A stretch of DNA of 64,000 nt, taken from assembly GCA_016713535.1 (NCBI GenBank), contig JADJOY010000017.1, positions 34,436-98,435 of the forward strand, in the 5' to 3' direction. Positions 7,125 to 52,850 of this stretch are shown piece after piece. The notes beneath the pieces are model-generated. The model searched no databases. It worked only from the letters and a program-made list of their open reading frames with translations, and was not told the DNA's origin. The stretch's first letter is position 1; each line of letters opens with the position of its first letter. The DNA is from Deltaproteobacteria bacterium (GTDB lineage: Bacteria; JADJOY01). The position numbers and the translations under genes were made by a program.

Positions 7125-7826
7125 ATGGCTACAGCGGCACGCAACGTGGATTCGGCGCGCAACGCCAAGGGCGCGCAGCCGATCCGCATCTTCCTCGCCG
7201 ACTCGCAGGACCTGCTCCGGGAGGGGGTCAAGCGGATCCTCGCGCAGCGCGGAGGCTTCGAGGTCGTCGGTGAGGCCGGCGACGGCCAGACCGCGCTCGC
7301 GCAGGTGCTCAAGACCAAGCCCGACGTGGTGCTGATCGACGTCATGATGCCGGTTCTCAACGGCGTCGACGCCGCGCGCGAGATCCTGCGTGAGCTGCCC
7401 AAGACCAAGGTGTTGGCACTCACGATCTACGCGAGCGACGAATACATCCACCAGATCCTCGACGCCGGCGCCATCGGCTACATCCTCAAGGACGCCAAGA
7501 GCGAGGACCTGGTGCGCGCGCTCGAGCTGGTGAGCGACGGGATCCCGTTCTTCTCGCCGGCGATCAGCAAGACCGTGGTGGCCGGCTACCTGAAGCGCCG
7601 CGGCGAGTCGAAGAAGCCCGCACCCTACGATCAGCTCACACCGCGCGAGCGGCAGGTGCTTCAGCTCATCGCGGAGGGGCGGCGTAACCGCGAGATCTCG
7701 AGCCTGCTCCACCTCTCGATCAAGACGGTCGAGGTGCATCGTGCGCACATCATGGAGAAGCTCAAGGCGCGCAGCATCGCGGACCTGGTGCTGATCGCCA
7801 TCGGCAAGGGCATCGTGAAGCTGTAG
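7125..7826 (+). CDS. NarL/FixJ (LuxR-type HTH) family response regulator
   Basis: Receiver motifs (DD...VVLIDVMMP...K) plus C-terminal LuxR HTH (LTPRERQVLQLIAEG...SIKTVEVHR). GAGGT RBS upstream. Confidence 0.9.
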   Translation: MATAARNVDSARNAKGAQPIRIFLADSQDLLREGVKRILAQRGGFEVVGEAGDGQTALAQVLKTKPDVVLIDVMMPVLNGVDAAREILRELPKTKVLALTIYASDEYIHQILDAGAIGYILKDAKSEDLVRALELVSDGIPFFSPAISKTVVAGYLKRRGESKKPAPYDQLTPRERQVLQLIAEGRRNREISSLLHLSIKTVEVHRAHIMEKLKARSIADLVLIAIGKGIVKL

Positions 7827-13351: not shown

Positions 13352-13483
13352 GGTGGTGTCGAGGCATCCATCGCCGTCAGCGCGCCGCGCGCGGCAGGCC
13401 AGCCGTTACACGCGAATGTACCCGACGTTCAACGTGACGCGGAGAATGTGCGGAAACGCTCGTCGGATGACCTTCGAGGTTGC

Positions 13484-13497
13484 GGCGCCGAAGTTGC
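13484..13497 (+). promoter_or_regulatory. sigma-54 (RpoN) type promoter GGCGC-N5-TTGC about 55 nt upstream of the DUF4398-OmpA-CsbD operon
   Basis: ttgcGGCGCcgaagTTGCact; invariant GG-N10-GC spacing; correct orientation. Confidence 0.5.
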
Positions 13498-13551: not shown

Positions 13552-13902
13552 ATGTTGCAGACACGCCTCATGGCGGTCGTCCTGCTCACCTCGGTGTTCG
13601 GCTGCGCAGCCGCGCGGCCATCGGGCGAGCAGATGAATCAGGCCATCTCGGCCATCCACGACGCGGAGCAGGCCGACGCCGTATCGATGGCACCCGTACC
13701 GATGCGGACGGCGCGCGAGGCCTACGCGAAAGCGGAAGAAGCCGTACGCCAGCAGGAGGAGCTCGAGGCCTCGCGGCTCGCCGACCAGGCGACGGTCGAC
13801 GCCAAGCTCGCCAGTGCCACCGCCCGTGCGACGCGCGCCGAGCGGAGCCTGGATGAAATGCGCCGCAGCCAGGACGCGCTGCGCCAGGAAGGGAGTCGCT
13901 GA
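13552..13902 (+). CDS. DUF4398-like lipoprotein (typical partner of OmpA-family proteins)
   Basis: GGAGA RBS; lipoprotein signal MLQTRLMAVVLLTSVFGC; coiled-coil A/E-rich body; stop 4 nt before the next gene. Confidence 0.65.
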   Translation: MLQTRLMAVVLLTSVFGCAAARPSGEQMNQAISAIHDAEQADAVSMAPVPMRTAREAYAKAEEAVRQQEELEASRLADQATVDAKLASATARATRAERSLDEMRRSQDALRQEGSR

Positions 13903-13905
13903 ACC

Positions 13906-14976
13906 ATGAAGACCACTCGATGCACCTTTCCGAATTCGCGCACTCCGCGCGCCGCGCGAGTCGTCCGCGGTCTCGTTCTCACGGTGGGCGCGGCGGTCGC
14001 GCTCGCGGGCTGCGGCCCGAAGCACAACCCGGCCCTCGACTCGCTGCGCGCCGACGTGGTGCACGCCAAGGCCGATCCGAACCTGGTGCGGCGCGCCCCG
14101 GCGGCCCTCGACGACACCGTGAAGGCGCTCGACCGCGCCGAGACCGCCGAGCGCCGCGGCGCCGACCCTGTCGACAAGCAACACACGATCTACCTCGCGC
14201 GTCGTCGGCTCGAGATCGCGCAGGCGCAGTCCGCGGAAAAGGCCGCGGAAGAGGAGATCGCGAAGCGCGGCACGCAGCGCGACACGGACGTCGCGAATGC
14301 GCGTGCGCGCGGCGCCGACCAGCGCGCGGCGAGCGCCGAGGGCGAGCTGCGGGCGACCCAGCGCTCGCTCGACCAGCAATCGGGCGAGGTGCGCGCCGGT
14401 GCGGCGGCCAACGCCGCGCTCACCGATCGCGCCCACGACGCCGAGGACAGCGCCGCGACCGCGCGCCTGAACCTGAAGGAATCGCAGCAGACCGTCGCGC
14501 AGCAGAGCGCCGACGCACGGGTGGCGGATCGCCAGCGCGCCGCCCTCGAGCTCGACCTCGCCCGGCTGCGCCACGAGCTGAACGCGCGGGAGACCGAGCG
14601 CGGGCTGCTCTTCACGTTCGGCAACGACGTGCTCTTCGACGTCGGCCGCTCCGACATCAAGCTCGGCGCACGCGAGCGGCTCGCTCGTCTGTGCGAGTTC
14701 CTCAACGCCTACCCGGACCGGTTCGTCCAGGTCGACGGCCACACCGACAGCACCGGCGTCATGGCGTCCAACCTGACGCTCTCCCGGGCCCGCGCCGACG
14801 CGGTTCGCGGCCTCATGGTCCACGAAGGGATCGCGCCCGACCACGTCGTCTCGCAGGGCTTCGGCTCGAGCTCGCCGGTGGCGTCGAACGACTCCAGCGC
14901 GGGGCGCCAGCAGAACCGCCGGGTCGAGATCGTGCTGCTCAACGCGAGTCGCAGCTCGGCGGACGCGAGCCGGTAA
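13906..14976 (+). CDS. OmpA-family lipoprotein (long coiled-coil N-terminal region plus C-terminal OmpA peptidoglycan-binding domain)
   Basis: Lipobox LAGC; C-terminal TDSTG...NRRVEIVLL OmpA_C motifs. Confidence 0.85.
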   Translation: MKTTRCTFPNSRTPRAARVVRGLVLTVGAAVALAGCGPKHNPALDSLRADVVHAKADPNLVRRAPAALDDTVKALDRAETAERRGADPVDKQHTIYLARRRLEIAQAQSAEKAAEEEIAKRGTQRDTDVANARARGADQRAASAEGELRATQRSLDQQSGEVRAGAAANAALTDRAHDAEDSAATARLNLKESQQTVAQQSADARVADRQRAALELDLARLRHELNARETERGLLFTFGNDVLFDVGRSDIKLGARERLARLCEFLNAYPDRFVQVDGHTDSTGVMASNLTLSRARADAVRGLMVHEGIAPDHVVSQGFGSSSPVASNDSSAGRQQNRRVEIVLLNASRSSADASR

Positions 14977-15041: not shown

Positions 15042-15236
15042 ATGAACCAGGACCAGATCAAGGGCACGTGGGACCAGCTCAAGGGCAAGGCCAAGCGCAT
15101 CTGGGGCGAGCTCACCGACGACGACTTCATCAAGGCCGAAGGGTCGGCGGACAAGCTCTACGGCGTCATCGAGAAGCGCTTCGGCGACAAGAAGGAAGCG
15201 ATCAAGGACCGGATCGACAAGCTCACCGTGAGCTGA
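15042..15236 (+). CDS. CsbD-family general stress protein
   Basis: MNQDQIKGTWDQLKGKAKRIWGELTDDDF... is the canonical CsbD sequence; GAGGAG RBS. Confidence 0.8.
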   Translation: MNQDQIKGTWDQLKGKAKRIWGELTDDDFIKAEGSADKLYGVIEKRFGDKKEAIKDRIDKLTVS

Positions 15237-16585: not shown

Positions 16586-17917
<1,332 letters not shown>

Positions 17918-18153
17918 TGCATCCTCGACCCTCGAGGATCGGGGCGGTCTCGGACGGCCGCCGGCCTATGGGACCGACTCGATGTGCACCCCGCGACGAT
18001 CGAGCCGATGGAGGGTAGCACCGATGGAATTCCCGGGCGGATGCGGTGGGGACGATCGGCCGCGCGGAGCGATACCCGATCGTCGCGGCGACGTGGCTCG
18101 AACGAAGGGAAGGGCGCGCCGCTAACGGCTTCTGCTTCGGCTCGGCGAGGCGG

Positions 18154-20004: not shown

Positions 20005-20023
20005 CGTGCACCTGAGGTGCACG
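20005..20023. promoter_or_regulatory. perfect 8-3-8 palindrome CGTGCACC-TGA-GGTGCACG, candidate operator upstream of the yqjE-like operon
   Basis: Perfect inverted repeat about 115 nt upstream of the start at 19892. Confidence 0.35.
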
Positions 20024-20633
20024 GAAGGTGTAGGCGTTACCAGCGATCCAGCCTGCTTCGGGGTGGCCTTCCTCGTTCCCGCGGGGCCCACTCGCCGGAT
20101 CGCGACCTCGCGCCGGCTGGGAGCGGCTTCGGCGTGGGGCACTGCGCTTGCACTGCACAGCCATCGATCGACGACGATCCAATGGAACGCGCCCGTTCAC
20201 TTCGAGCGGACGCAGGGCCATGCCCGAGGAGAACGAACATGATCACGATCCGACGAGCCGCGCTTCCCGCGACGGCGGCCGTAGGGCTTGCGTCCGTGTG
20301 CGACGGCAACGACGCGACCCACCCGTTCCGCAACTCGTCGGCTTCTACGGCCCGCCGATCAACGACCCCGTGTTCACCACCACGCCGGGCACGCTCGACT
20401 CCAACGACAACGGCGAGCTCTTCGACGACGAGCCGTCGGTCGCGCTCACCGCGCAATCGACCGGCACATCCTCCGACACCGGTGACGAGCTCGATCTCCA
20501 GCTCTTCCTCGAGCCCGGCGTCTTCAACGTGGACTCCAGCGGCACCGGTGATCTGAGCGACGTCCGGACCACCGGCCGAGAGCAGGTCGTGGCGCGAGGT
20601 CCGTTTGCGAATCCCCCGCTTCGAAAGGCGATC

Positions 20634-21332
20634 ATGTCATCACCAGCACCACCTCCCGGCTCTCCCCCGACGCGGGGCGATCCGGCTCCCCGATCACCCC
20701 CCAGGAGGGTCCCGCTCCGGTTGCCCGCGCTGCCCTACGCGGCGGACGCGCTGGAGCCGGTGCTGAGCGGAGAAGCGGTCGATACGCACTACGAGAAGTA
20801 CCAGCGGCGCGATCTGGAGCGGCTCGAGCACTCCCTCGAGGGCTCTCTCCTCGGTGATCAGCCCCTCGACGGCATCGTGCGGCTCGCGACCGGGGAGGTC
20901 TTCGACCACGCCGCGCAGGTGTGGAACCACACCTTTTACTGGAACAGCATGACCCCGCGCGGCGGTGGGCGGCCGCGCCGCGGCCGCATCGCCAAGGCCA
21001 TCGACACCTCGTTCGGTTCCTACGACGAGTTCGCCGAGCGCTTTCAGCAGACCGCGGCCGGCCTCTTCGGCTGCGGCTACGTCTGGCTCTACCGCCCGGA
21101 CGAGACCGACCGCGTCGAGCTCGCGGCGCTGCCCAATGCCGGGAATCCACTCAGCCACGGCGGGGCGCCGATCCTCGTCGCGGACCTGTGGGAGCACGCT
21201 TACTACCTCGATCACCGGGAACAGTCCGCGCGCTACGTCCGCCTCTTCCTCGAGAGGCTCGTCCACTGGGACTTCGCCGAGCAGAATCTGTCCGAGGTCC
21301 GTGGACTGGCCGCGCGCGTCGGTCCGCGCTGA
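20634..21332 (+). CDS. sodB: Fe/Mn superoxide dismutase (Fe-type)
   Basis: LPALPYAADALEP ... AAQVWNHTFYWNSM ... DLWEHAYYLDHR; the metal ligands H, H, D, H are conserved. The ATG at 20634 gives a 30-aa Pro-rich N-terminal extension. An alternative TTG at 20721, 12 nt downstream of AGGAGG, would give a canonical-length protein. Confidence 0.85.
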   Translation: MSSPAPPPGSPPTRGDPAPRSPPRRVPLRLPALPYAADALEPVLSGEAVDTHYEKYQRRDLERLEHSLEGSLLGDQPLDGIVRLATGEVFDHAAQVWNHTFYWNSMTPRGGGRPRRGRIAKAIDTSFGSYDEFAERFQQTAAGLFGCGYVWLYRPDETDRVELAALPNAGNPLSHGGAPILVADLWEHAYYLDHREQSARYVRLFLERLVHWDFAEQNLSEVRGLAARVGPR

Positions 21333-22232: not shown

Positions 22233-22439
22233 CGCGAGCGCCTCGACCGGGTGTTGGCCGACCTGCGTTACGGAGCCGTGCGCTCCGGTGCGCGAGCCAG
22301 GAATGGAGTGGGGTCGCGGCCGTACGACGATCCGCTGGCGGCCACGTTCGATCGAGGAGGCTCGCCGGGGATCCCGTGATTCCCTTGGCTTACAGCGGGT
22401 GCTGTCCGCCGAAGCCGCAACCGGGGCGGCTCGGGCGTC

Positions 22440-22453
22440 GGCACCCGGTTTGC
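22440..22453 (+). promoter_or_regulatory. sigma-54 type promoter GGCACccggtTTGC about 60 nt upstream of the second csbD-like gene
   Basis: Exact GGCAC-N5-TTGC spacing. Confidence 0.55.
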
Positions 22454-22514
22454 GGTGCTTCCCAATGGATCGGAGATGCCAATCGCTCCATCGAGCAGAA
22501 GGGGAGGCCGAGTC

Positions 22515-22679
22515 ATGGCCGGCAAGGTCGATCAGGCCAAAGGGCGTGTGAAAGAAGCCGTCGGCGTGCTCACGAACGACAAGAAACTCGAGACCGAGGG
22601 GAAGGTCGATCAGGTCGTCGGGAAGGTGAAGAAAGCCGTGGAGAAGGTCGTCCACGCCATCCAGGAGACGGTCTCCTGA
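22515..22679 (+). CDS. CsbD-family stress protein (second copy)
   Basis: MAGKVDQAKGRVKEAVGVLTNDKKLETEGKVDQVVGKVKKAVEKV; GGGGAGG RBS. Confidence 0.75.
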   Translation: MAGKVDQAKGRVKEAVGVLTNDKKLETEGKVDQVVGKVKKAVEKVVHAIQETVS

Positions 22680-22767: not shown

Positions 22768-24048
22768 ATGACGGCGGGGCCGAGCATCCGAGCGTACGAG
22801 TCGAGTGCGACGGCGCTCACCGCGGCGAAGCCGATGGGTGAGGGCCGAGTCCCGCTGATCGACGAGTCCATTCTCCGCGAGGTCGTCGAAGCGCTCGCGC
22901 CCCTCGTTCGAGCACCGTGTTCCCAGGCCGAGCGCGCCGCTGCGGATTGGATCGCCAGCCGCTTGCGCAAGGCCGGATGTCACCACGTCGAGCTGGAGGA
23001 CGAGGCCTCGTGGGGGTCGTTCCCGCCCAACCTGATCGCGGCCGGTCTGCTCGGCATCGCTGGCGGGATCGCGGGCCTCGCAGGGCGCGAGCTGCTCGCG
23101 ATCGGTGCGTTGCTGGTCTCGATCGTGGCGGTGGCGGACGAGGTGCAGAACGGCCCCCGTGTGCTCCGCCGGCTGTTGCGGCGCAAGCGGCGCACGGTCA
23201 ACGTCGTCGCACGTGTCGGCGATCCGGATGCGCCGCGCACCATCGTGCTGATGGCTCACCACGACGCCGCGAAGACGGGCCACCTCTTCGATCAGACGCT
23301 GCTCAAGAAGATCTACGCGCGCTGGCCCGCGTTCGTGCACGCGCGCAGGAGTGCACCGCCGGAGTGGTGGATCGGAGTCATCGCGCCCGCGGTCGCGATC
23401 CTCGGCGTGGTCACGGGTCAGGGCTGGTTGATCTCACTCGGTATCGCCGGGATCGTGGCTGGCGTCGCGTTGCTCGCCGACATCGAACGAAGCGAGACGG
23501 TGCCGGGCGCCAACGACAATCTCTCCGGCGTGGCCGCGCTGGTCGCGATCGCGGAGGAGCTCAGCTCCCGTCCCGTACCCGGGCTCGACGTCTGGATCGT
23601 GTCGACCGGCGCCGAGGAGACGCTCCAGGACGGCATCCGTGGGTTCATGGCGCGACATGGAGAGGAGCTCCAGCGCCGTCGCGCGGTCACGCTCAACTTC
23701 GAGACCGTCGGCTCGCCTCATCTCGGCTTGCTCGAGGGAGAAGGTCCTCTGTGGATGGAGGACTATCGTGGGCCGTGGCTCCGCGACACGATCGCGTCGA
23801 TCGCGAAGGGTCGCGGCATCGAGCTCGAGCGCGGGCTTCGGGCGCGCTCCTCGACCGACAGCGTGATCACCAGCCGTGCGGGCCTGCCGTCGGCCTGCCT
23901 CGTTTCGCTGACCGACTGGCGCGCCCTGGCCAACTATCACCTGCGGACCGACGTTCCGGAGAATCTCGACTACCGGACGATCGCGAACGCGTCGCGGTTG
24001 GGCGTGGCGGTGGCGCAGTCGTTCGGCCGCGGAAGCCTGGCCGGCTGA
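22768..24048 (+). CDS. M28-family zinc peptidase-like membrane protein
   Basis: PGANDNLSGVAALVAIAEEL M28 signature; several TM segments inserted. Confidence 0.75.
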   Translation: MTAGPSIRAYESSATALTAAKPMGEGRVPLIDESILREVVEALAPLVRAPCSQAERAAADWIASRLRKAGCHHVELEDEASWGSFPPNLIAAGLLGIAGGIAGLAGRELLAIGALLVSIVAVADEVQNGPRVLRRLLRRKRRTVNVVARVGDPDAPRTIVLMAHHDAAKTGHLFDQTLLKKIYARWPAFVHARRSAPPEWWIGVIAPAVAILGVVTGQGWLISLGIAGIVAGVALLADIERSETVPGANDNLSGVAALVAIAEELSSRPVPGLDVWIVSTGAEETLQDGIRGFMARHGEELQRRRAVTLNFETVGSPHLGLLEGEGPLWMEDYRGPWLRDTIASIAKGRGIELERGLRARSSTDSVITSRAGLPSACLVSLTDWRALANYHLRTDVPENLDYRTIANASRLGVAVAQSFGRGSLAG

Positions 24049-25633: not shown

Positions 25634-26977
25634 TCAGAACGCCTTCGACCACATCACCAGCACCTGGCTTCCGCCTCGGTCGCCCCGCACGAGCCGGGTG
25701 TCGTAGTCGTATTCGACCTCGAGGGTCGAGTCCCAGAAGAACCCGCTGACCAGCGCCATCGACGGCACCTCGCCGGTCAGGGAGCGGAAGTGCGCGTTGC
25801 CGCTCGACTCCTCGATCGAGACGATGCGGCCCTGGAAGAGCGTGATGCTGGCGCGCAGGTACATGAAGAACGTGAGCTCGTAACGGTACGAGGCCGTGGC
25901 CAGCACGTATTCGTCGGCGATGAACTGATCGAAGAGCGCACCCGGATAGGTGATCCGGAGGAGGTCGTCCGCTTCCCTCGGCAGCGGACCGCCGCCGATG
26001 CGGAACCCCGAATAGCGGTCGAGCGTCCCTTGCGGCGCCCAGCCGAAGCGGAGCTGGCCGGTGATCCCGTGTCGGTCCGAGAGCCACGGCAGCCGGGTCG
26101 CACCGACCACGTACCCCTTGAGCTTCATGAAGTCGCGATCGCCGAGCTCGGTCAGCGGATCGCGGTGGCCTTCGATGGCGGCCGGCTCCTGGTTCCAGCG
26201 ATCCCGGCGCAGGAACTCGGCGTCGAGACCGAACGCGTAGCCGGACTGAGGAATCTCGAGGAGGTTGCGTTGCAGCGCGTCGAGGCGCACCCGCAGCGAC
26301 GGCCCGTGCACCCAGGTGTCGTACGGGACCGCGATGTCGGGAGAGGTGTCGTCGGTGCGGTTGAAGTGCGCGTATTCGCCTCGGTAGAAGAGCTGGATCC
26401 GAAGCTGGTTGTCGACGTTGAAGGGCGACACGTCGAGCGCCCAGCCCGGGCCAATCCAGAGCGTCTCGTAGCCCCATTTGAGCTCGGTGTCGTCGAGCTC
26501 CTCACCGCTCACCGTCTCGGCTTCACCGAAGAGGCGGCGGTCGTCGTTGCCGAGACGCGCGATGGCCTCGAAGCCTCGGAAGCGCTGGGCGAACTCGAGG
26601 TCGTTGACGAGCCCGCTGATCTGCGCGCGTACCCGGCGCTGATCCTCCCAGTCGCCCAGGTAGTAGAACGAGCCGAGGGGCGAGAACTGGGTGTCCCCGA
26701 TCTTGGGGGCGTAGAGCGTGGCGCCGAGCGCGACCGCCATCGTATCGCCGCGGTCACGCGCCTCGATGTTCACCTCTTTGCCGAAGATCTCGGTCTGATA
26801 GGGCTCGCCGGCCTGTCCCGATTCGTACTCGGCGGGGGCCGGTTTCGGCTCACCTGCGCTCGTCGGTACGCCAGAGGTGTCGGACGAGCTCTGCGCCTCG
26901 ACGGCGCTCAGGGGTGCGATCCACAGCACGATCGCGAGGAGGGTCGAGAACGTGGGTCGAGTGAAGCTCGATGTCAT
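25634..26977 (-). CDS. outer-membrane beta-barrel protein (C-terminal aromatic residue)
   Basis: Start ATG 26977 with AGGAGA RBS; signal peptide MTSSFTRPTFSTLLAIVLWIAPLSAVEAQ; alternating amphipathic strands; ends ...VLVMWSKAF. Confidence 0.6.
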   Translation of the reverse strand: MTSSFTRPTFSTLLAIVLWIAPLSAVEAQSSSDTSGVPTSAGEPKPAPAEYESGQAGEPYQTEIFGKEVNIEARDRGDTMAVALGATLYAPKIGDTQFSPLGSFYYLGDWEDQRRVRAQISGLVNDLEFAQRFRGFEAIARLGNDDRRLFGEAETVSGEELDDTELKWGYETLWIGPGWALDVSPFNVDNQLRIQLFYRGEYAHFNRTDDTSPDIAVPYDTWVHGPSLRVRLDALQRNLLEIPQSGYAFGLDAEFLRRDRWNQEPAAIEGHRDPLTELGDRDFMKLKGYVVGATRLPWLSDRHGITGQLRFGWAPQGTLDRYSGFRIGGGPLPREADDLLRITYPGALFDQFIADEYVLATASYRYELTFFMYLRASITLFQGRIVSIEESSGNAHFRSLTGEVPSMALVSGFFWDSTLEVEYDYDTRLVRGDRGGSQVLVMWSKAF

Positions 26978-27148: not shown

Positions 27149-27162
27149 AGCAAGAACGATGC
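27149..27162 (-). promoter_or_regulatory. sigma-54 type promoter (minus strand GGCATcgttcTTGC) about 170 nt upstream of the OM beta-barrel/lipoprotein operon
   Basis: Reverse complement of tagaGCAAgaacgATGCCtcgg. Confidence 0.4.
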
Positions 27163-27370
27163 CTCGGTAGATCGGCTGACGCGGTCCGCGGCGCGGGCGG
27201 ATCGCGCCGCGCGCGCCGCGGGCGATTGCAGGTCCGCTACAGGATCCTTGTAAGAGCTGCCGGGTGCCGCGGCGCCGACGGCGCAGGCCGCTTCCGGTCG
27301 TGGGGGTTCGGAGGGCCCAAGCGCGCGGAGAGCGCGTCGGGTCGCCGAGCTGCGCCCGGTGTGAACCCGC

Positions 27371-27384
27371 GGCACACACGTTGC
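27371..27384 (+). promoter_or_regulatory. sigma-54 type promoter GGCACacacgTTGC about 55 nt upstream of the DUF3309 / B12-rSAM operon
   Basis: cGGCACacacgTTGCt; exact consensus spacing. Confidence 0.55.
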
Positions 27385-27439
27385 TCTAGCCGGAGACCGA
27401 ACGTGCGGCCGGGTCCCCCGAGCCGTTGCGGGGGTCGTG

Positions 27440-27604
27440 ATGAGCGTGAGCCTGGTCGTGATCGTGTTGCTGGCGTTGCTTCTCGTCGGTGCCTTTCCCA
27501 CGTGGCCCCACAGCCGAGGCTGGGGCTACGGACCGTCGGGTGGTCTGGGGCTGGTACTGCTGATCGTCGTGATCCTCATGCTCACCGGGACCCTTCACCT
27601 CTGA
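27440..27604 (+). CDS. DUF3309 small membrane protein (55 aa; below the ORF-track size cutoff)
   Basis: MSVSLVVIVLLALLLVGAFPTWPHSRGWGYGPSGGLGLVLLIVVILMLTGTLHL matches the DUF3309 pattern (PTWPYSRGWGY); high GC3. Confidence 0.7.
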   Translation: MSVSLVVIVLLALLLVGAFPTWPHSRGWGYGPSGGLGLVLLIVVILMLTGTLHL

Positions 27605-27669
27605 GCCCGCGCGGCCGTCGCCGAGCGGATGGGTGACGGTCGACGGACGGCTCACCCGGAAGAATCCTG

Positions 27670-29306
27670 ATGAAGATCGAGTTGATCGCTCCCAAGAACC
27701 CGGAGTCGTTCTGGACGTTCGACCGCGTCCTGCCCACGATCTCCAAGAGCGCCACGTTCCCGAACCTGGCGCTCCCGACCTCGCGGCGCTCACTCCGCCC
27801 TGGCACGACGTCGTGCTCCGGGACGAGAACGTCGAGGCGATCGACTTCGACACCGACGCCGACTGGATCGGGCTCACCGGCTACATCGTCCACAAGGCGC
27901 GGATGTTCGAGATCATCGACGCGTTCAAGGCGCGCGGACGGCGCATCGCGGTGGGGGGGCCGTTCGCGACGCTGTGCCCCGAGCAGCTCCGCGACAAGGT
28001 GGACGTACTCTTCGTGGGCGAGAGCGAGCGCACCTGGCCACGCTTCCTGTCGGACCTCGCGGCGGGTGAGCCGAGGGCCGAGTACCACGCCGACGCTCTC
28101 CCCGAGCTCGACGACGCGCCGATCCCGCGCTTCGACCTGCTGAAGCTGAATCGCTATCGCAGCATGGCGGTGCAGTTCGCTCGCGGCTGTCCGTACACCT
28201 GCGAGTTCTGCGACATCATCGTCATGTACGGGCGCAGGCCGAGGACCAAGCCGGTGGCGCGCCTCGTCGCGGAGGTCGACGCGCTCCATGCGCTGGGCGC
28301 CCACGACGTGTTCGTGGTGGACGACAACTTCATCGGCAACAAGAAGGCCGCCAAGGCTCTGCTCCGCGAGCTCGTGGGGTGGCAGGTGGCGCACGGGTAC
28401 CCGGTGGAGTTCATGACCGAGGTCTCGCTCAACCTCGCCCAGGACGACGAGCTGCTGCGGCTGATGCACGACGCCAACTTCACGTCCGTGTTCATCGGCA
28501 TCGAGTCACCGCGGGTCGCGAGCCTCGAGGAGACCGGCAAGACCCAGAACATCCGCGCCGATCTGCTCGGATCGGTCCGCAAGATCCAGGACGCCGGCAT
28601 CGAGGTGATGGCGGGGATGATCGTGGGCTTCGACAACGACGACGTCTCCATCTTCGAGGAACAGTTCCGGTTCATCCAGGACGCTCGCATTCCGGTGTCG
28701 ATGACGGGCTTGCTGAATGCGCTACCGCAGACGCCGCTACGCGAGCGCCTGCTGACCGCGGGCCGGCTCGACGACGAGTACACCGGTGACCAGTTCGTGT
28801 TCTCGAACGTGATCCCGGCCGCGATGTCGCGGCTCGAGCTCTATGAGGGCTACAGGGACCTGCTCGAACGGCTCTACGATCACTCGAACTACCGCAGGCG
28901 TGCGATGGCCTTCCTCCGCGACCAGGGGCCGGAAAAACGCGTGCGTGTGTCCGCGGGCGCACACGAAGTGCGGATCTTCTTACGCGTGCTGTGGACGTGC
29001 GTGCTCCTCGCGCCGCCGCGGCGCGCGGCGATGACGCTGCGCATGCTCGGCGAGACGTTGCTGCGCAGGCCCAGCTCGATGCGCAAGGCGGTGGTGCTGG
29101 CGCTCATGCACAAACACCTTCACGAGTACGCAGTCTTCGTCCGAGCCGAGCTCGATCGGATCATCGTCGGCCTGCGCGCCCCGGCACCGCCACCGGTCGC
29201 CGTCGCGGAGCTCGTCGGTCATCGTCTGCTCCCTCAGGACCGGTTGGCGGGGCGCCGGTCGCCAGATCCGGCGAGCGGGCACGTGGTCGACGTTCCGGCC
29301 GGGTAA
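27670..29306 (+). CDS. B12-binding radical SAM protein with DUF4070-type C-terminus; apparent -1 frameshift near 27780
   Basis: N-terminus MKIELIAPKNPESFWTF is in frame 27670; the rest is in frame 27633 (B12-binding region, FARGCPYTCEFC CxxxCxxC, DUF4070-like tail). The frame changes inside a C run (ccgacctcg). Confidence 0.8.
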
Positions 29307-29439
29307 CCCGGTTGGCGGGGCGCGGCCAGGACTCCGTCACGGCGCGCGGAGCGTGGACGGACCCGTGGCGCCGGCGGTGAGATCCGCCTCGATTCCAGGG
29401 AGATCCGTGGCGTTGGCAGACCTCCATGGCCGCTTGCTC

Positions 29440-29453
29440 GGCACGTCGTTTGC
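29440..29453 (+). promoter_or_regulatory. sigma-54 type promoter GGCACgtcgtTTGC about 80 nt upstream of the alpha/beta hydrolase gene
   Basis: tcGGCACgtcgtTTGCgct. Confidence 0.55.
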
Positions 29454-29534
29454 GCTCGCGAACGGGTGGCTCTGGCCGCGCGGCCCGGTCTCGCGAGTGA
29501 GAGCGGCCCGGTAGCGCCGAGGGGGGGCTCATCC

Positions 29535-30653
29535 ATGCAACGCAGAAGCTCGCAGGCTCTCGACGGGATCGCGAGCTTTCTCGGAAGGCTCGTCATCCGG
29601 AGCGGAGCCGCTGCCGAGAATACGCTCGCGCAGCTCGATGCCTACCGCGGTCGCACCGTCGAGGAGCTGTTCCCGGCACCGCCGGGGCTGCCCGACGTCA
29701 CGGTCGCGCGCGCCTGGAAGGTCGGGCCTTTCGAGAGCCTTCACCTATCGTTCCCGTCGGAATACCAGCCCATCGCGCCCGACTTCCGGCAGCGCCACGG
29801 CGACGAGTACCGCCGCAATCAACAGGTCTCGGTGCGGTGGATCCGTCACACGCGCGGCGGCCCACGGCCCACGCTCATCTTCCTGCATAGCTGGATGCAA
29901 CCCGATACCGCGCTCGAGGAGCTCACGATGTTGCCGGTGCTCGCCGGTCAGCTCGGGCTCCACGTGGCCCGGCTCGACCTCCCGTACCACGGACGGCGCA
30001 AGCCTCTGGGTTCCCGGTTCGGGGGCGAGTACTTCTGGACCGCCGACCTGGTGCGTACCGTCGAAGCCATCGGACAGAGCGTGTGGGACACGCGGCGCCT
30101 GGTCTCGTGGCTCTCCGCTCAGGAGGGCGCGCCCGTCGGGATCATGGGGTTGAGCCTCGGCGGGATGATGGCGCTCTACACCGCGTGCGCCGACCCACGC
30201 CTCGCGTTCGCGATCGGCGTAGCGGCCCACCTCGATCTCGCCGGCGTCCTCGGCGACGCCTCCATCCTGAAGCGCATGCGCGGCGAGCTCGAGAGCCACG
30301 GCTGGAGCCCCGCCGACGTGAGTGCCTACATGGCGCTGGTGGGCATCGCGGACCTGAAGCCCGTGATCCCGCCCCAACGGATCTTGCTGGTCGCGGGCAA
30401 GTACGACCGGCTCCTCAGCGCCGATCGCACGGAAGCGCTGTGGAAGCGCTGGGGCGAGCCGCCCATCCACTGGTTTCCGGCGGGGCATCTGGGGATCTTC
30501 ACCCAGCTTCCGGGCACCATCGCCGTGGTTCGCCGATTCCTCGAGGGGCTCGGTCTCGGGCGGTCGCGACGCAACGGTGAGGCGGGCTCCACGTCTGTAG
30601 CGCCTACAGATCCGTTGTCACCCCCATTCAACGACGTTCCGCCGAGCGCCTGA
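29535..30653 (+). CDS. alpha/beta hydrolase fold protein
   Basis: GLSLGG nucleophile elbow (GxSxG), HSW oxyanion region; start ATG 29535 (MQRRSSQ). Confidence 0.75.
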   Translation: MQRRSSQALDGIASFLGRLVIRSGAAAENTLAQLDAYRGRTVEELFPAPPGLPDVTVARAWKVGPFESLHLSFPSEYQPIAPDFRQRHGDEYRRNQQVSVRWIRHTRGGPRPTLIFLHSWMQPDTALEELTMLPVLAGQLGLHVARLDLPYHGRRKPLGSRFGGEYFWTADLVRTVEAIGQSVWDTRRLVSWLSAQEGAPVGIMGLSLGGMMALYTACADPRLAFAIGVAAHLDLAGVLGDASILKRMRGELESHGWSPADVSAYMALVGIADLKPVIPPQRILLVAGKYDRLLSADRTEALWKRWGEPPIHWFPAGHLGIFTQLPGTIAVVRRFLEGLGLGRSRRNGEAGSTSVAPTDPLSPPFNDVPPSA

Positions 30654-30761: not shown

Positions 30762-30775
30762 GGCGCCCACCTTGC
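30762..30775 (+). promoter_or_regulatory. sigma-54 type promoter GGCGCccaccTTGC about 105 nt upstream of lmo0937-EncFtn-encapsulin
   Basis: cccGGCGCccaccTTGCtc. Confidence 0.45.
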
Positions 30776-30882: not shown

Positions 30883-31032
30883 ATGTTGTGGACAATCGCA
30901 CTGGTGTTGATCGTGCTGTGGCTCCTCGGGTTGGTCAGTAGCTACACGATGGGCGGTTTCATCCACGTTCTACTGGTCGTCGCCGTGATCGTGGTGCTCG
31001 TGAGCCTGATCCAGGGTCGCAGAGTCCTGTGA
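30883..31032 (+). CDS. lmo0937-family small membrane protein
   Basis: MLWTIALVLIVLWLLGLVSSYTMGGFIHVLLVVAVIVVLVSLIQGRRVL; GGAGGG RBS. Confidence 0.7.
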   Translation: MLWTIALVLIVLWLLGLVSSYTMGGFIHVLLVVAVIVVLVSLIQGRRVL

Positions 31033-31133: not shown

Positions 31134-31577
31134 ATGAACGGTTACCACGAGCCCTATGAATCCCTCGCACCGCCGGACCGCGATCTCCATCGCGCGCTGC
31201 TGAGCTTGAAGGAAGAGATCGAGGCCGTGGATTGGTACCACCAGCGGGTCGTGACCTGCACCGATCAGGACCTCGGGCAAGTGCTCGCGCACAACCGCGA
31301 CGAGGAGATCGAGCACGCGTGCATGACGCTCGAGTGGGTGCGCCGCACGAGTCCGGCGTGGGACCTCGCGCTCAGGAAGTTCGTGTTCACCGAGGGCTCG
31401 ATCACGCAGAAGGAACGTCCCTCCCCATCGGCGCCCCTCGCCGCGTCGCGCGGACACGCCGAGCCGCCGCGAGGTGACCTCGCCATCGGGCGTTTGCACG
31501 ACCCGGTCGAACCGAAAGGGCGGCACGATTCGCGGGCCGCCGGCGCTCCCGAGCGTGCGCTTTGCCCCACCCCATGA
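31134..31577 (+). CDS. encapsulated ferritin-like protein (EncFtn) with C-terminal cargo-loading peptide
   Basis: HEPYESL...LLSLKEEIEAVDWYHQRV...AHNRDEEIEHACMTLEWVRR closely matches the EncFtn fold; the tail contains GDLAIGRL, similar to encapsulin targeting peptides. Confidence 0.85.
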   Translation: MNGYHEPYESLAPPDRDLHRALLSLKEEIEAVDWYHQRVVTCTDQDLGQVLAHNRDEEIEHACMTLEWVRRTSPAWDLALRKFVFTEGSITQKERPSPSAPLAASRGHAEPPRGDLAIGRLHDPVEPKGRHDSRAAGAPERALCPTP

Positions 31578-31588
31578 CGAGGACACCC

Positions 31589-32413
31589 ATGGACACCTTC
31601 AGGACGTCGTTGGCGCCGATCTCGGCGACTGCGTGGACCGAGCTCGAGCGGCAGGCCCGGGCCTCCCTCACCGCGCCGCTCTCGGCGCGCCGGATCGTCG
31701 ACGGCCGCGGACCGCGCGGGTGGGACGCCTCCGCGATCAACCTCGGCCGGCTGCGCCTTCACGACGGCGAGCAGGACGGAGTGTCGTTCGGGATCCGCCA
31801 GGTCCTGCCGCTGATCGAGCTGCGCGTCCCGTTTCGCCTCGGCCTGTGGGAGCTCGACAACGCCGCGCGCGGTGCGCTGGACCTGGACCTGAGGCCCCTC
31901 ACCGCCGCGGCGCGAGCGATCGCACACGCCGAGGACGAGATCGTGTTCCGCGGCCTCGCCGCGGCGGGTGTGCGAGGGGTGCTCGACTCGACGGCGCGCA
32001 CGCCCGTCGAGTTCGGCGCCGATCCACAGCGGTTCCCGGCGGCCGTGGCCAGCGCGCTGGTCCGGCTCAAGAACGACGGGGTCGGCGGGCCGTACGCGCT
32101 GGTCGTGGGCGCCGAGCTCTTCACGGCCCTCAGCGGAACGAGCGGCGATCAGTATCCGCTGATGCCGCGCCTCGCGCGGCTGATCGATGGCCCGGTGCTC
32201 CTGGCGCCGGTGCTTCGCGACGGTGCGGTGCTGGTGACGAGGCGGGGCGGCGATTTCGAGCTGACGCTCGGTCAGGACGTCACGCTCGGCTACGAGTTCC
32301 ACGACTCGAAGGACGTGAAGCTCTTCTTCACCGAGTCGGTGACGTTTCGAGTGCTGGACGAGGACGCAGCGGTGCTGTTCCGTCCCGAGGCGAGCGCGAC
32401 CGCGGTCACCTGA
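31589..32413 (+). CDS. family 1 encapsulin shell protein (linocin M18-like, HK97 fold)
   Basis: Start at M10 of the ORF 31562..32413 with GAGGA RBS. Matches T. maritima encapsulin across its length (RRIVDGRGPRGWDASAINLG..., LPLIELRVPF.LGLWELDN, GGDFELTLGQDVTLGYE). Confidence 0.9.
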   Translation: MDTFRTSLAPISATAWTELERQARASLTAPLSARRIVDGRGPRGWDASAINLGRLRLHDGEQDGVSFGIRQVLPLIELRVPFRLGLWELDNAARGALDLDLRPLTAAARAIAHAEDEIVFRGLAAAGVRGVLDSTARTPVEFGADPQRFPAAVASALVRLKNDGVGGPYALVVGAELFTALSGTSGDQYPLMPRLARLIDGPVLLAPVLRDGAVLVTRRGGDFELTLGQDVTLGYEFHDSKDVKLFFTESVTFRVLDEDAAVLFRPEASATAVT

Positions 32414-32546: not shown

Positions 32547-32861
32547 ATGATCACGAACCGATTTCACGTTGGCCGGCTGGGTGTGGGATGGACGGTGCGC
32601 CGCGAGTCCGACCCCGGAACGCTGATGCGGTTCCCCACCCAGAGCGAGGCCGAGGTCGCGGCCCAGGCGCGCTGTCGCGGCGCCCTCGACGTGGTGGTGG
32701 TCGACGCGGCTTCCAGCCAGCGCCGAGGCCGCGCCAAACCCGGCTCGTCCCTGGCCGCGCTCGAGGCGATGCTCCGCCGTGCCTCCTCCAGGCTCGACGA
32801 GTCGGCCCAGCGCCTCGCCGCGCTCGGTGCGTGGCCGCCCACCACCCCGGATCGGTCATGA
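32547..32861 (+). CDS. DUF2188-family small protein
   Basis: MITNRFHVGRLGVGWTVRRESDPGTLMRFPTQSEAEVAAQARCRGA; stop overlaps the next start (ATGA). Confidence 0.7.
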   Translation: MITNRFHVGRLGVGWTVRRESDPGTLMRFPTQSEAEVAAQARCRGALDVVVVDAASSQRRGRAKPGSSLAALEAMLRRASSRLDESAQRLAALGAWPPTTPDRS

Positions 32862-33975
32862 CGCCGGAGCAGGGGCCGAGCCCGAGGCTCGTCGACTTCC
32901 TCGCCGCTCACCGCGAGGAGATCCTCCGCCGCACCGGCATCCGCGTCGGAGCCCGCCTCGGGCCAGGCGTGACGTCCGAGCAGCTCGAGGAGGGTGTTCC
33001 GCTGTTCCTGGACCACCTCGAGGTGGTGTTGGGGGTGGGTGAGGTGTCGCCGGGCGATGATCCGGCTCGGAGGAACGCGGGCGCGGCGGCCCACGGCGCA
33101 GCGCTCCAGCGAGCGGGGTTCACGATCGCTCACGCGGTCCACGGCTATGGCGACGTCTGCCAGGTCGTGACCGAGCTCGCCGAGGACCTCGGCCATCCGA
33201 TCACGGTATCGGAGTTCCACGCCTTCAACTGGTGCGTCGACGTGGCGGCGGCCGAGGCCGTGACGGAGTACCAGCGCCGCCGTGAGGCCGCCTTCGCGAG
33301 CGACGAGAACGAGCGGCTGGGGATGCTGGCGCACGAGCTCCGAACTCGATCAACGCCGCGCGGCTCTCGTACGAGCTCCTGCGCCTGGGCCGGGTCGGCG
33401 TGCGCGGCAGTACGAGCAACTCGCTGGGACGCAACCTGCGGCGCCTCGGCGTGCTCATCGACCGTGCGCTCGCCGAGGTCCGGCTCCAGTCGGGAAGCAG
33501 CAGTCTCTCGCCGATCCAGGTGGCAGCGCTCGTGGAGGACGTCGAGGTCGACGCCAGGGCTCACGCCGCCGATCAAGGTCTGGGGCTCGTCGTGGCGTTC
33601 GTGGATCCTGCCCCCGGGGGCTGCGTCTCCATCCTCACGTCGGCCGACGCGGAGCGCGTGCGGATCCACGTCGCGGACGACTGTGGCGGGCTCGGCGAGG
33701 GCGTGGCCGAACATATCTTCCAGCCGTTCGAGCAGTGGGGCGCGGATCGTACGGGGCTGGGCCTCGGCCTCACGATCGCTCGCCGCGCCGCCGAGGCGCA
33801 GGGGGGATCGGTGTCGGTCGAGGACCGTCCGGGGGCCGGCTGCACCTTCACCCTCGAGCTGCCCCGCGCATTCACTGCGGTCCGTGGCCAGGGCACGGAA
33901 TCGGCGCCCGAGATGGCCTCCAATGCCGCGGCGCCGCGCGCTCGTCCACCGCGGACCGACCAGAACTCGCCATGA
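32858..33975 (+). CDS. cytoplasmic sensor histidine kinase; apparent -1 frameshift near 33340
   Basis: H-box MLAHELR in frame 32531; then N-box/G-box/HATPase (NSLGRNLRRL..., DDCGGLGEGV...GLGLGLTIARR) in frame 33400. The junction is ctccgaactcg, probably missing one base. Confidence 0.75.
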
Positions 33976-34988: not shown

Positions 34989-36079
34989 CCACGCCTCCGT
35001 ACGGTGCGAGCCTGCCGACCCTTCACGCGCCGTCGAACCTTGCCTCGCTCGCGTACGACCTGCGGATCGAAGATCCGAGGCAGACGCTCGGCGAATCGTG
35101 TGCGAGCCAGGAACGGGGACGTGTCGGTCGATCACGAGATCCTGCCGCTGCGGTTGGACGTGCCGCCCTGCCGGTATCGTGCATCCCACGACCGGTTCAA
35201 CGAGCCATCCAGGTCGGTGGGAATGCCGTTGGTGCCGACGAGCCGTGGGACGTGGACGCTCGCTCCGGCGGGTCTCGAGGGCGTCGCGGCCGCGCCCTTG
35301 GTGCGCCGTCGCTTGGCGGCCCAGTTCGCAAGCGCCTGGAACCAGCCCGGGCTCGTGTCGGACCTCGCGCTCGGCGCTGTGCCCGAGGCGTTCTCGGCGG
35401 CTGGGAGCCCCCGGTCGTCGCGGCAACGCACGCTCACCACCGCCCGGCCACGAGCGCCAGGCGCACGGGGCTGATCGCTGCACCTCGTGGCGGAGGGATG
35501 GATGCAGCATTCCCTACGGCGGAACGGGCGCGGGGTGTTTCGAGGACGGACATGTGCTCTCCCATGGTGACACGCGGGTCGAAGGGCGCGGGAACCCGCA
35601 AGTAACGTTCATCGGCGGGCGGGCGGGTGCCAGCGCGCGACTCGCCTGCCCGGTCAGCCGGGCAAGACCTGGCTCGCCCCGCTCGACCGAGAAGCACGCA
35701 GAATGCCGGTGGTGAGCTCAGGGCCTGGCGGGTACGCCACCGCCGGCGCGGTCAGCCTATCATCACGCCAGGGACGACGAACGCACGACCCGCCAGCCTT
35801 CCTTTGCTCGACCGGCCGGCCGGAGGACCCGGCGGTGTGCGCCCGCTCAGCTCGACTCGGTGCTGGCGAGGCGGCTGCCGGTGACCCGCAGTCGCAGCCA
35901 GTCGATGGCCGCGGAGCGATGGCCCGCGCGTTGCTAGCGCATGGCCGCGCACGGCTGCGCGATCGGGTTTCAGCCGTAATCCTGCGCAAAATCTCGCGCG
36001 ACAGGCGAAACCGATGACCGACCCACTTTCAAACGGCGAGCAAAAACTACAAAGCGGCGGGGCTGGCGGAGGAGCGAGC

Positions 36080-37323
36080 ATGGAGCGTGGAACGACGGGC
36101 AACCGAGCGCGGACCCTCGCGGGCCTCGCGTCGCTCGTGGTGCTGGGGCTCGCGGCCGAGTGCCACCTGGTCGCGCCGACCGACCACGACATCACCGTGG
36201 GGCCCGGCTTCAGTGACGTCAGCCCGCACCAGGTGGTGCGCACGAGCGCGGGGCTGCTCTACACGGTCACGGCGACGTGCAAGTTCTATCCCTCGTGCGG
36301 GTCGAGCAACACGATCCTGGTCCGCAAGGCCGATCAGGTGGGAACGCCCACGGCGCTCACCGTGGTCGGGGACTCGGCGGACGTCGGCATCCTGATCGGC
36401 GCCGTGGCCATCGCCATCGATGGCCAGGATCGGATCCACGCGCTCTGGACGCAGCGCGACGGCTTCGTCCGCTACGGGATCTTCGACACGGCCACCGACT
36501 CGTGGGGTGCGATCGAAGCCATCGAGGCGACCAACTGGACGGACTTCGCCCAGCGAGATCAAGGGGTGGGACTCGCCCTGGATCCGGCGGGCGTGCCGTA
36601 CGCCACCTGGAGTCATCGACCGACGGCCGGCGCTGCACTCCGCACCCACTTCTCGCGGCGCCTCGCCGGTGGCTGGGAGACGCCGATCGAGGTGGCGGAC
36701 GTGGTCGACTGCGACCCGGCCACCGTCGACTGCGGAGCGTGGCACCCGACGGTAGCCTTCAAGCCGAACGGCGACTTCCTGGTGGCGTGGGGCACCAGCT
36801 CGTTCCCCTACGAGCGCGACGGCTGGGTGCACGTCTGCACGCGAACCCACACCGGCACCTGGCTACCCTCGGTCCGGATCGAGGAGCACTCGCTGGGCGG
36901 GCTCGACGACGGCCCGTCGATGATCGTCACCCCGATGGTGTCGCCCACGTCTCGTTCGTCGACGTCAACTTCGCGCCCCGCTACTGGTACGACGAAGGGC
37001 AGGGCTGGAAGGGCGACCGTCAGCCACCCGTCGTCGTCACGCACAACCCGTCGCTCGGACCCGATGGCGCGAACGGTGTCCTCCTCTATGCCCACGGTCC
37101 CCCGCCGATCGGTGACCCCGCCGGCGAAGGACACGACATCTTCTCGGTGCACCGGCCCCGAGGGGGTGCGTTCGATCCGGCCTGGACGCTCTACGTGGAG
37201 GGCGCGTACGACTCGTCGATCTCGACACGCTGGGCGCAGTTCTTTCAGGCCGAGCCGTGGAACCTCGACCTCGTCTACTGGACCCGCCAGTACCCCAACG
37301 AGCTTCACCTCGGCGTGAACTGA
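36080..37323 (+). CDS. secreted hypothetical protein; apparent -1 frameshift near 36935
   Basis: Signal peptide MERGTTGNRARTLAGLASLVVLGLAA with GGAGGAG RBS. The N-terminal 285 aa are in frame 36014; the C-terminal part (HVSFVDVNFAPRYWYDEGQGW...) is in frame 36277. The junction is inside a CCCC run. Confidence 0.6.

Positions 37324-37350: not shown

Positions 37351-41058
<3,708 letters not shown>

Positions 41059-51632: not shown

Positions 51633-52850
<1,218 letters not shown>

Follow-up and report, generated by a model that had tools for sequence, protein, structure and literature searches.

A 64-kb stretch of DNA from a metagenome-assembled genome (MAG) of an uncultured high-GC 'Deltaproteobacteria' (Myxococcota-like) bacterium, hereafter the window (the whole stretch analyzed, ∼70% G+C), carries a row of three genes that encode a DUF3309 micro-protein, a B12-binding radical SAM enzyme (rSAM) and an alpha/beta hydrolase. 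Do these genes form one functional module, what would control them, and is the rSAM gene, whose reading frame is broken in the deposited sequence, intact in the organism? A preliminary description of this DNA had seen in them a module preceded by sigma-54 motifs and had questioned the integrity of the rSAM gene. We regard it as reasonably probable that the trio is a slice of a larger, sigma-54-dependent stress island, in which the rSAM is an HpnP-like enzyme, the hydrolase is a fellow member of the regulon and the frame break is an assembly error. An NtrC-type activator encoded inside the island and the -24/-12 sites in front of its stress and envelope genes would make it sigma-54-dependent. 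The function of the trio and of the island is throughout what we infer from the sequence, and the points of interest are the regulatory wiring and the orphan rSAM clade.

The three genes and their spacing

The closest relatives of the window are the loci L081 and L082, whose rSAM proteins, the orthologues P0002 and P0003 with unbroken frames, share 89% and 83% identity with that of the window. The small gene described upstream of the rSAM gene was borne out by its match to Pfam PF11752 (E=2e-21, 76.2 bits against a gathering cutoff of 22.3, profile positions 2–49 of 50), and its product has two predicted hydrophobic helices. The earlier count of 55 aa runs from GTG 27437; we prefer the start at ATG 27440 (54 aa), which matches the L081 orthologue. 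The gap of 25 nt given between this gene and the rSAM gene holds for the GTG at 27633 that opens the ORF, but not for the start indicated by homology, ATG 27670, which lies 65 nt past the DUF3309 stop. Because of this short spacing, and since no terminator-like site was found between them, the site at 27370 probably drives both genes as one transcript.

The hydrolase gene starts 228 nt past the rSAM stop (∼230 nt in the earlier account) and, as described, has a sigma-54-type site of its own. Its product, identical to NCBI MBK7974918.1, matched Pfam ABHD18 (27.4 bits, cutoff 21), and the triad residues (S207 within G205-x-S207-x-G209, D291 and H318) were invariant in 14 homologues. Two other assignments were rejected on their NCBIfam scores, namely the RcgR family of quorum lactone hydrolases (NF047337; 55.1 bits versus a cutoff of 182) and PHA-depolymerase (32 bits versus 150).

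An HpnP-like radical SAM enzyme outside the HpnP clade

Pfam upheld the assignment of the rSAM to the B12-binding/radical SAM/DUF4070 type, an architecture common to the hopanoid methylase HpnP (PMC10697835). The enzyme matched DUF4070 (9e-19) and Radical_SAM (7.5e-15; 56 bits, cutoff 29.5), and its cluster motif CX3CX2C (C174-P-Y-T-C178-E-F-C181) was invariant in homologue sets of 15 and of 40. The structural model has a beta-alpha-beta N-terminal domain of the Rossmann type and matches TsrM, CysS and MgmA but also AprD4. In Foldseek, the model retrieved AprD4 (6fd2), CysS (9n1c), MgmA (9ccb) and TsrM (6wte), with E-values of 5e-14 to 2e-10 and TM-scores of 0.5–0.66. The sequence search of the PDB gave weak class-B rSAM matches only, and no NCBIfam equivalog was found (best, PhpK family, 74 bits/cutoff 600; BchE, 64/481; HpnR, 44/650). 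As modelled, the enzyme is of the class-B (B12-domain) radical SAM fold with an intact CX3CX2C motif.

Two observations weigh against taking it for a cobalamin-dependent methylase. The Pfam B12-binding match (2e-07) scored 31.3–31.6 bits, just below the cutoff of 32.1, and AprD4, the closest solved fold, is a cobalamin-independent dehydratase and not a methylase. The fold therefore does not fix the chemistry, and 'methylase' is a guess.

We searched 5.8 billion proteins for homologues of the enzyme; of the 8,000 candidates scored, at least 5,692 were homologues at E≤0.001, and the best 120 were all at least 62% identical and spanned Methylomirabilota, Binatia, Acidobacteriota and Myxococcota. 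According to Hoshino et al. (2023), HpnP and several uncharacterized 'HpnP-like' clades share the B12-binding, radical SAM and DUF4070 domains, and OQY67521 (Polyangiaceae UTPRO1) figures there as an outgroup or HpnP-like sequence without characterization (PMC10697835). The window rSAM was 57% identical to OQY67521 over 507 residues, 33% to Rokubacteria HpnP and 30.5% to the verified R. palustris HpnP (B3QHD1). In a neighbour-joining tree with 13 of the ∼100 HpnP and HpnP-like sequences of the supplementary alignment of Hoshino et al., it grouped with OQY67521 and the 62–89% relatives, outside the HpnP clade. The latter identity and this tree position rule out that the rSAM is HpnP itself. No squalene-hopene cyclase or hpn genes were found within the 64-kb window, and the accessions of the rSAM family were not among the supplementary sequences of Hoshino et al. 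Judged by sequence, the rSAM is a new member of a very widespread, highly conserved HpnP-like clade that lies apart from HpnP, the hopanoid C-2 methylase, and that has been described but not characterized.

In R. palustris, EcfG is reported to place hpnP under general-stress control (Kulkarni 2013, as cited in PMC4337730). Because of this control and the helical DUF4070 tail, we guess that the rSAM is stress-induced and acts on a hydrophobic substrate. By analogy, and with low confidence, it may methylate a hydrophobic or membrane substrate at an unactivated carbon, or modify that carbon in another way, in stress adaptation.

The frame break is very probably an assembly error

A 1-nt indel near 27780 had been noticed earlier, and tblastn of P0002 and P0003 against the window confirmed it: residues 1–37 matched 27670–27780 and residues 31–521 matched 27759–29231, in different frames, which puts a 1-nt deletion in the rSAM gene at 27779/27780. 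The main rSAM ORF (27633–29306, 557 aa) opens with GTG 27633, and the ORF from ATG 27670, in a different frame from the main rSAM ORF, encodes MKIELIAPKNPESFWTFDRVLPTISKSATFPNLALPT. The orthologues P0002 (532 aa) and P0003 (528 aa) read MKIE(L/P)IAP(K/R)NPESFWTFDRVLPT...FPNLALPTIAALTP at their N-termini. Addition of one base after 27779 (ACC|CTC) gave ...FPNLALPTLAALTPP..., which matches the corresponding ...FPNLALPTIAALTP... of both, and a protein of 545 aa. The product deposited at NCBI (P0001, MBK7974917.1) has 497 aa, is N-terminally truncated and begins MLRDEN. In the structure that AlphaFold predicts for the intact orthologue (mean pLDDT of 76), strand beta1 (residues 2–7) and two helices of the Rossmann-type domain at the N-terminus fall within the part that would be lost, and this segment holds S13, W15, L35 and A39, which are invariant even in 38–44% homologues.

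Taken at face value, the broken frame, the annotation of a truncated product only and the loss of these structural elements and invariant residues would mark the gene as a genuine pseudogene, recently inactivated in this population. However, besides the missing base no second lesion was found over 1.6 kb; the dN/dS of the rSAM gene against each of the two intact orthologues is 0.17, resembling that between those orthologues (0.14); and the 36 codons 5' of the break are still 92–95% identical to the orthologues. Within 17 kb, a like deletion occurs in at least one further gene and probably in two or three. The secreted-protein gene at 36014–37323 (436 aa) changes frame at a 1-nt deletion at ∼36933, and its repaired product aligned over 95% with homologues of 88% and 74% identity, gapless across the junction. 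A histidine kinase gene beside the encapsulin operon (32858–33975) has a frame break at ∼33342 within the H-box (HELR|NSINAA); the HisKA match across the junction appeared only in the repaired protein, with HATPase_c in the frame that follows the break. A fourth 1-nt deletion, or else a separate tiny ORF, may lie at ∼20320 in the N-terminal extension of the superoxide dismutase (SOD). As consensus errors account for several 1-nt deletions within 17 kb of an otherwise well-conserved chromosome better than a set of genes that all became pseudogenes recently, we consider a pseudogene unlikely and the break at 27779/27780 very probably an assembly indel error, so that the enzyme is probably made at its full length of 545 aa. 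The earlier doubt thus stands for the deposited sequence, in which the frame break is present, but a pseudogene is not favoured. Programmed frameshifting was rejected, as CUC CCG ACC UCG holds no slippery heptamer and the orthologues are read in one frame.

The single-base deletions of the source assembly have consequences for the deposited annotation, in which the rSAM is cut to 497 aa and a nearby gene is mistranslated. The latter, IPK07_17125, follows the wrong frame past the ∼36933 break and matches only 65% of the repaired query; IPK07_13385, one of the two homologues aligned with the repaired product, is a paralogue from this MAG. At 20239–20330, a signal-peptide-like start, MITIRRAALPATAAVGLASVC..., lies out of frame with the N-terminal extension of the SOD ORF. 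The M28 peptidase, which is one ORF in one frame in the window (22858–24027), appears at 1289–2575 of L081 as two gene calls, of 281 and 113 aa, and the L081 assembly may carry breaks of its own there.

The trio is not conserved as a module outside a narrow clade

We examined the neighbourhoods of rSAM homologues at 38–68% identity in 80 loci from genomes and 80 from metagenomes; in the genome loci, a search for DUF3309 and hydrolase genes by tblastn, a regular expression and a small hidden Markov model found them in L081 and L082 only. Adjacency of all three genes, with order and spacing kept, was confined to the window and these two loci. In both loci, too, a DUF3309 orthologue stands directly 5' of the rSAM gene and the divergent gene for a 447-aa protein adjoins the pair. 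In GCA_964650975.1 the trio is split: DUF2760 and HSP70 genes come after the rSAM gene (P0004, 69%), and the hydrolase gene (P0123, 78%) lies on another contig, followed by CsbD and DUF5670. A comparison of rSAM–hydrolase synteny, which the preliminary description had suggested, found no hydrolase orthologue near ∼170 other rSAM loci (genome and metagenome), and hydrolase homologues elsewhere had no rSAM neighbour. The proposed three-gene module thus fails outside this narrow clade.

The retained order and spacing would suit a dedicated lipid or metabolite remodelling operon, in which a membrane lipid, methylated or rearranged by the rSAM, is deacylated or released by the hydrolase, with the DUF3309 protein as a membrane partner. 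The lipid methylase HpnP is itself among the DUF4070 enzymes, and two plasmid loci point in the same direction. On the plasmid of Bradyrhizobium sp. CB82 (L177), a 35% homologue from a different HpnP-like clade is convergent with the adjoining gene for a lipid A lauroyl acyltransferase and lies near an SGNH hydrolase gene and an isoprenylcysteine methyltransferase-like gene; on plasmid pSR-1 of Skermanella rosea (L090), a 49% homologue follows two alpha/beta-type hydrolase genes in an arrangement like that of the window (Hsp20, Hsp20, ..., dienelactone hydrolase, PHB-depolymerase-family esterase, rSAM homologue, on one strand). However, the Skermanella hydrolases were rejected as orthologues of the window hydrolase (E=0.05 and 1.2), the hydrolase gene has its own promoter, and the split in GCA_964650975.1, with different neighbours for the two genes, as well as the ∼170 loci without a hydrolase orthologue and the hydrolase homologues without an rSAM neighbour, make such an operon unlikely. 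Because of its own promoter and its separate contig in GCA_964650975.1, we take the hydrolase to be a neighbour within the regulon.

A second possibility, that the 54-aa DUF3309 peptide is the substrate modified by the adjacent rSAM, as in ribosomally synthesized and post-translationally modified peptides (RiPPs), would fit the position of the small gene immediately 5' of the rSAM gene in a probable operon, and the rSAM has weak NCBIfam similarity to RiPP rSAMs (e.g. ApyD, 48 bits). Among the ∼170 other loci, DUF3309 was found near the rSAM gene once, in L133 at 1.5 kb from a 43% homologue. This brings such loci to three or four only (three related genomes and one other), whereas the rSAM is conserved at 57–69% across phyla without a DUF3309 neighbour. 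DUF3309, with its two hydrophobic helices, resembles a membrane micro-protein and not a leader-core peptide, and no RiPP-typical transporter or protease was found among the genes present. We therefore regard a RiPP-like pair as highly improbable.

The neighbours of the 53–69% rSAM orthologues vary and include two HSP20 genes (Binatia-type), hemerythrin, Usp-domain, G6PD, RNase E/G and inositol monophosphatase genes and others. A hemerythrin gene directly adjoins the rSAM homologue in five loci (L086, L095, L098, L031 and L149), in differing orientations, and HSP20 pairs adjoin it or lie within 6 kb in L083–85, L090, L151 and L057, from four lineages. These neighbours hint that the rSAM clade is linked to stress or oxygen, in counts uncorrected for kinship of the loci. 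The homologues on alphaproteobacterial plasmids (R. tropici, Komagataeibacter, Bradyrhizobium, Methylocystis) showed no consistent context.

From the gene order in these loci we conclude that DUF3309–rSAM is a clade-specific operon. A functional module of all three genes is not supported outside the narrow clade, and the trio appears as neighbours in a larger island. The adjacency of the three genes in three genomes could nevertheless reflect a functional link within the clade, which would count against this reading.

Sigma-54-type promoter sequences in front of the trio and its neighbours

We scanned both strands of the window with the sigma-54 pattern GGCRC-N5-TTGC and observed seven exact matches, six of which lie on the plus strand between 13.4 and 30.8 kb, are intergenic and correctly oriented, and each stand 52–107 nt before the start codon of a stress-type gene (Table 1). 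Relaxed stringency added two sites, the minus-strand site at 27150–27163, ∼170 nt from its start codon, and the plus-strand site at 35920, which also falls in the range of 52–107 nt. The sigma-54 motifs that had been described before each transcription unit of the trio were found: P5 (27370) and P6 (29439) agree with 10 of 12 consensus positions, and both are kept in L081. There P5 reads GGCACaggcgTTGCTCTA, and the core of P6 is identical (at 7791), although the flanks around the DUF3309 and hydrolase sites have diverged. The equivalent of P5 in L082 is weak (CGGCCCcattcGTGCA). At the place of the minus-strand site, L081 (5486) and L082 (4040) have an exact GGCGC-N5-TTGC within a conserved block of the three-way alignment, and L082 has a further GGCGC-N5-TTGC site before its DUF4398–OmpA–CsbD genes. 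In L172, whose hydrolase is 78% identical, five sites fall within 5.3 kb: before the hydrolase gene (68 nt; GGCACcggtcTTGC), CsbD (63 nt), DUF5670 (59 nt; GGCATccgcaTTGC), a GGDEF gene and one more.

Sigma-54 dependence of the island genes is what these promoter sequences suggest, and several observations weigh against it. The overall excess is modest, as 2.5 matches were expected and seven were reached in 1 of 100 shuffles. The L082 sites before DUF3309 and the hydrolase agree with only 8–9 of 12 consensus positions, and rpoN does not lie within the 64-kb window. No sigma-54 site or shared promoter was found before the rSAM orthologues of 15 other lineages, and the wiring, if real, is therefore clade-specific. 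That the GGCAC-N5-TTGC matches arose by chance or serve another regulator, with ordinary promoters transcribing the genes, is nevertheless very improbable: GC-rich motifs are common in a ∼70% G+C genome, and a scan for sigma-70-like promoters, uninformative in such genomes, found none with 0.2 expected, but the placement and orientation of six of the seven matches, their recurrence before the same genes in L081 and L172 despite diverged flanks, and the sigma-54 activator gene inside the island argue otherwise.

Between the divergent promoters lies a palindrome of the form TACA-N7-TGTA, the sole occurrence of this form in the window and kept in position, with a varying spacer, in L081 and L082; TACA-N6-TGTA also occurs, at 13407. 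The palindrome stands ∼125 nt 5' of P5 and ∼80 nt 5' of the minus-strand site. Because its distance from both promoters fits, it is likely, as far as the sequence allows, to be an activator-binding site for the divergent pair. Other palindromes stand 50–170 nt 5' of island promoters, at 13407 (TACAcgcgaaTGTA), 20006–20022 (GTGCACctgagGTGCAC), 22392 (ACAGCgggtGCTGT) and 30594–30610 (TCTGTAGcgcCTACAGA). Those at 13407, 27238 and 30596 are of the TACA/TGTA type, and those at 20006 and 22392 are of other types. No motif common to all island promoters was found; GC-rich 8-mers only were shared, and the palindrome spacings differ.

Genes of the island

With 8–9 sigma-54-type promoters, the island spans ∼19–23 kb (∼13.4–32.4 kb, possibly to 37.3 kb). 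The stress setting proposed earlier is supported by the CsbD, DUF5670, SOD, EncFtn/encapsulin, BON and OmpA genes nearby. DUF5670, EncFtn and encapsulin lie behind a sigma-54-like site in what looks like one operon. In L081 just a fragment of EncFtn is left, before metH, and the content of the island thus differs between relatives. No Pfam or NCBIfam match was found for the divergent 447-aa protein, and neither it nor DUF3309 matched an NCBIfam equivalog.

Table 1. Positions of the trio, the sigma-54-type sites and the island genes in the window
Feature	Position	Strand	Remarks
DUF3309 small membrane protein, 54 aa	27440-27604	+	Pfam PF11752; ORF opens at GTG 27437
HpnP-like B12-binding radical SAM enzyme with DUF4070, 545 aa after repair	27670-29306	+	Pfam, orthologues
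Frame-break site, one base missing	27776-27782	+	CCG ACC TCG vs CCG ACN CTC/ATC implied by orthologues
ABHD18-type alpha/beta serine hydrolase, 372 aa	29535-30653	+	Pfam ABHD18; start ATG 29535
Sigma-54-type -24/-12 promoter P5, cGGCACacacgTTGCt	27370-27385	+	52 nt before GTG 27437, 55 nt before ATG 27440
Sigma-54-type promoter P6, cGGCACgtcgtTTGCg	29439-29454	+	81 nt before hydrolase start
Sigma-54-like site P7, GGCGCccaccTTGC	30762-30775	+	107 nt before DUF5670
Sigma-54-like site, GGCATcgttcTTGC(TCTAA)	27150-27163	-	faces divergent outer-membrane-like gene; one mismatch
Sigma-54-like site, cGGCACccggtTTGCg	22439-22454	+	before CsbD 22515-22679
Sigma-54-like site, gGGCACtgcgcTTGCa	20137-20152	+	before Fe/Mn SOD
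Sigma-54-like site, GGCGCcgaagTTGC	13484-13497	+	before DUF4398 lipoprotein
Sigma-54-like site, TGGCCCgcgcgTTGCT	35920-35935	+	before secreted-protein gene 36014; relaxed match
Palindrome TACAggatcctTGTA then AGA, putative activator-binding site	27238-27252	.	between divergent promoters
Divergent 447-aa protein, signal peptide, C-terminal ...MWSKAF	25634-26977	-	Omp85/barrel-like look, outer-membrane-like
DUF5670 micro-protein	30883-31032	+	Pfam 3e-16
EncFtn ferritin-like cargo	31134-31577	+	Pfam 1e-37
Family-1 encapsulin shell	31562-32413	+	Pfam 3e-81
CsbD	22515-22679	+	Pfam 5.5e-16; M28 peptidase (22858-24027) behind same promoter
Fe/Mn superoxide dismutase, secreted, N-terminal extension	within 20137-21332	+	behind site 20137-20152
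DUF4398 lipoprotein	13552-13902	+	behind site 13484
OmpA-family protein	13906-14976	+	behind site 13484
Second CsbD	15042-15236	+	behind site 13484
BON-domain protein	to 16415	+	behind site 13484
NtrC-type response regulator / sigma-54 activator (REC + Sigma54_activat + HTH_8)	16589-17965	-	Sigma54_activat 4.9e-70
Secreted protein, 436 aa	36014-37323	+	behind site 35920; 1-nt deletion ∼36933

The rest of the window is ordinary chromosomal DNA, with dapA/dapF/lysA-type genes, argG/argH/argB, hslUV, a gene for a xerC-type recombinase, metH and an acyl-CoA dehydrogenase gene. MetH, the cobalamin-dependent methionine synthase, is encoded at 37351–∼41000 on the minus strand. An Rfam scan of the whole window gave no family at threshold, and hence no cobalamin riboswitch near the rSAM gene or metH. 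ARAGORN called a tRNA-Arg(tcg) of 93 nt at 52494–52586 (plus strand), antisense within the argininosuccinate synthase gene, which is probably a false positive.

Proposed mechanism and significance

In the sigma-54-dependent stress island that we favour, the activator, bound at the TACA-N7-TGTA palindrome, would serve P5 and the divergent promoter. P5 would drive DUF3309 and rSAM as one transcript, and P6 would drive the hydrolase gene as a separate unit, making the hydrolase a member of the regulon and not the enzymatic partner of the rSAM. The rSAM would methylate or otherwise modify a hydrophobic or membrane substrate in stress adaptation. A broader proposal, which we hold to be rather doubtful, is that the general stress response of this lineage runs via sigma-54, with one or more enhancer-binding proteins acting on the small -24/-12 promoters of the CsbD, DUF3309, DUF5670, SOD, encapsulin-ferritin, envelope-protein and ABHD18 hydrolase genes, and that the HpnP-like rSAM methylates a non-hopanoid membrane lipid or other hydrophobic component and so hardens the envelope; if this is true, the hemerythrin, HSP20, HSP70 and Usp neighbours in other phyla would mark the whole rSAM clade as a stress-adaptation enzyme.

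The rSAM clade is large and without an assigned function, and a stress-regulated setting offers a concrete condition under which to seek its product. The clade also counts among the HpnP-like groups that make 2-methylhopane biomarkers harder to interpret (PMC10697835). Sigma-54 promoters clustered before classic general-stress genes would, moreover, be an unusual wiring for such a response. Sigma-54 has been termed the 'controller of the bacterial exterior' (PMC3162934).

Comparison with known systems

Among characterized enzymes, the window rSAM resembles HpnP (R. palustris TIE-1, B3QHD1) in its three-domain architecture, similar length and end-to-end alignability, as well as in the stress control of hpnP. 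It differs from HpnP in its low identity and its place outside the clade, and its gene stands behind sigma-54-type promoters, whereas hpnP is reported to be controlled by an ECF sigma factor. With the clade of OQY67521.1 it has in common the N-terminal MKIxLxxPxNPESFWTxDRxLP and the DQFVFSN motifs. AprD4, CysS, MgmA and TsrM share the N-terminal Rossmann-type domain and the radical SAM barrel, but they are only 14–19% identical, lack the DUF4070 helical tail and act on an aminoglycoside, a polyketide intermediate, an MCR glutamine and tryptophan, respectively. The hydrolase resembles ABHD18 (PF09752) in its Pfam match above the gathering score and its Ser-Asp-His triad, and this family is without an assigned substrate.

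At the level of regulation, CsbD-type proteins, SOD, OsmY/BON and OmpA-like proteins are typical members of general stress regulons. The island, with CsbD-type and tiny membrane proteins, SOD, OsmY/BON and OmpA-like proteins, resembles in content those of the alphaproteobacterial EcfG/PhyR system and of Bacillus SigB. Its promoters, however, are of the -24/-12 sigma-54 type, which needs an AAA+ activator, and not of the ECF or SigB type. In this respect the island resembles PspF/psp and the myxobacterial NtrC-like activators, where an enhancer-binding protein acts together with -24/-12 promoters before envelope and stress genes. It differs from these systems in its gene set, which lacks psp genes, in its small promoters scattered over ∼20 kb and in the inclusion of an encapsulin system and an rSAM.

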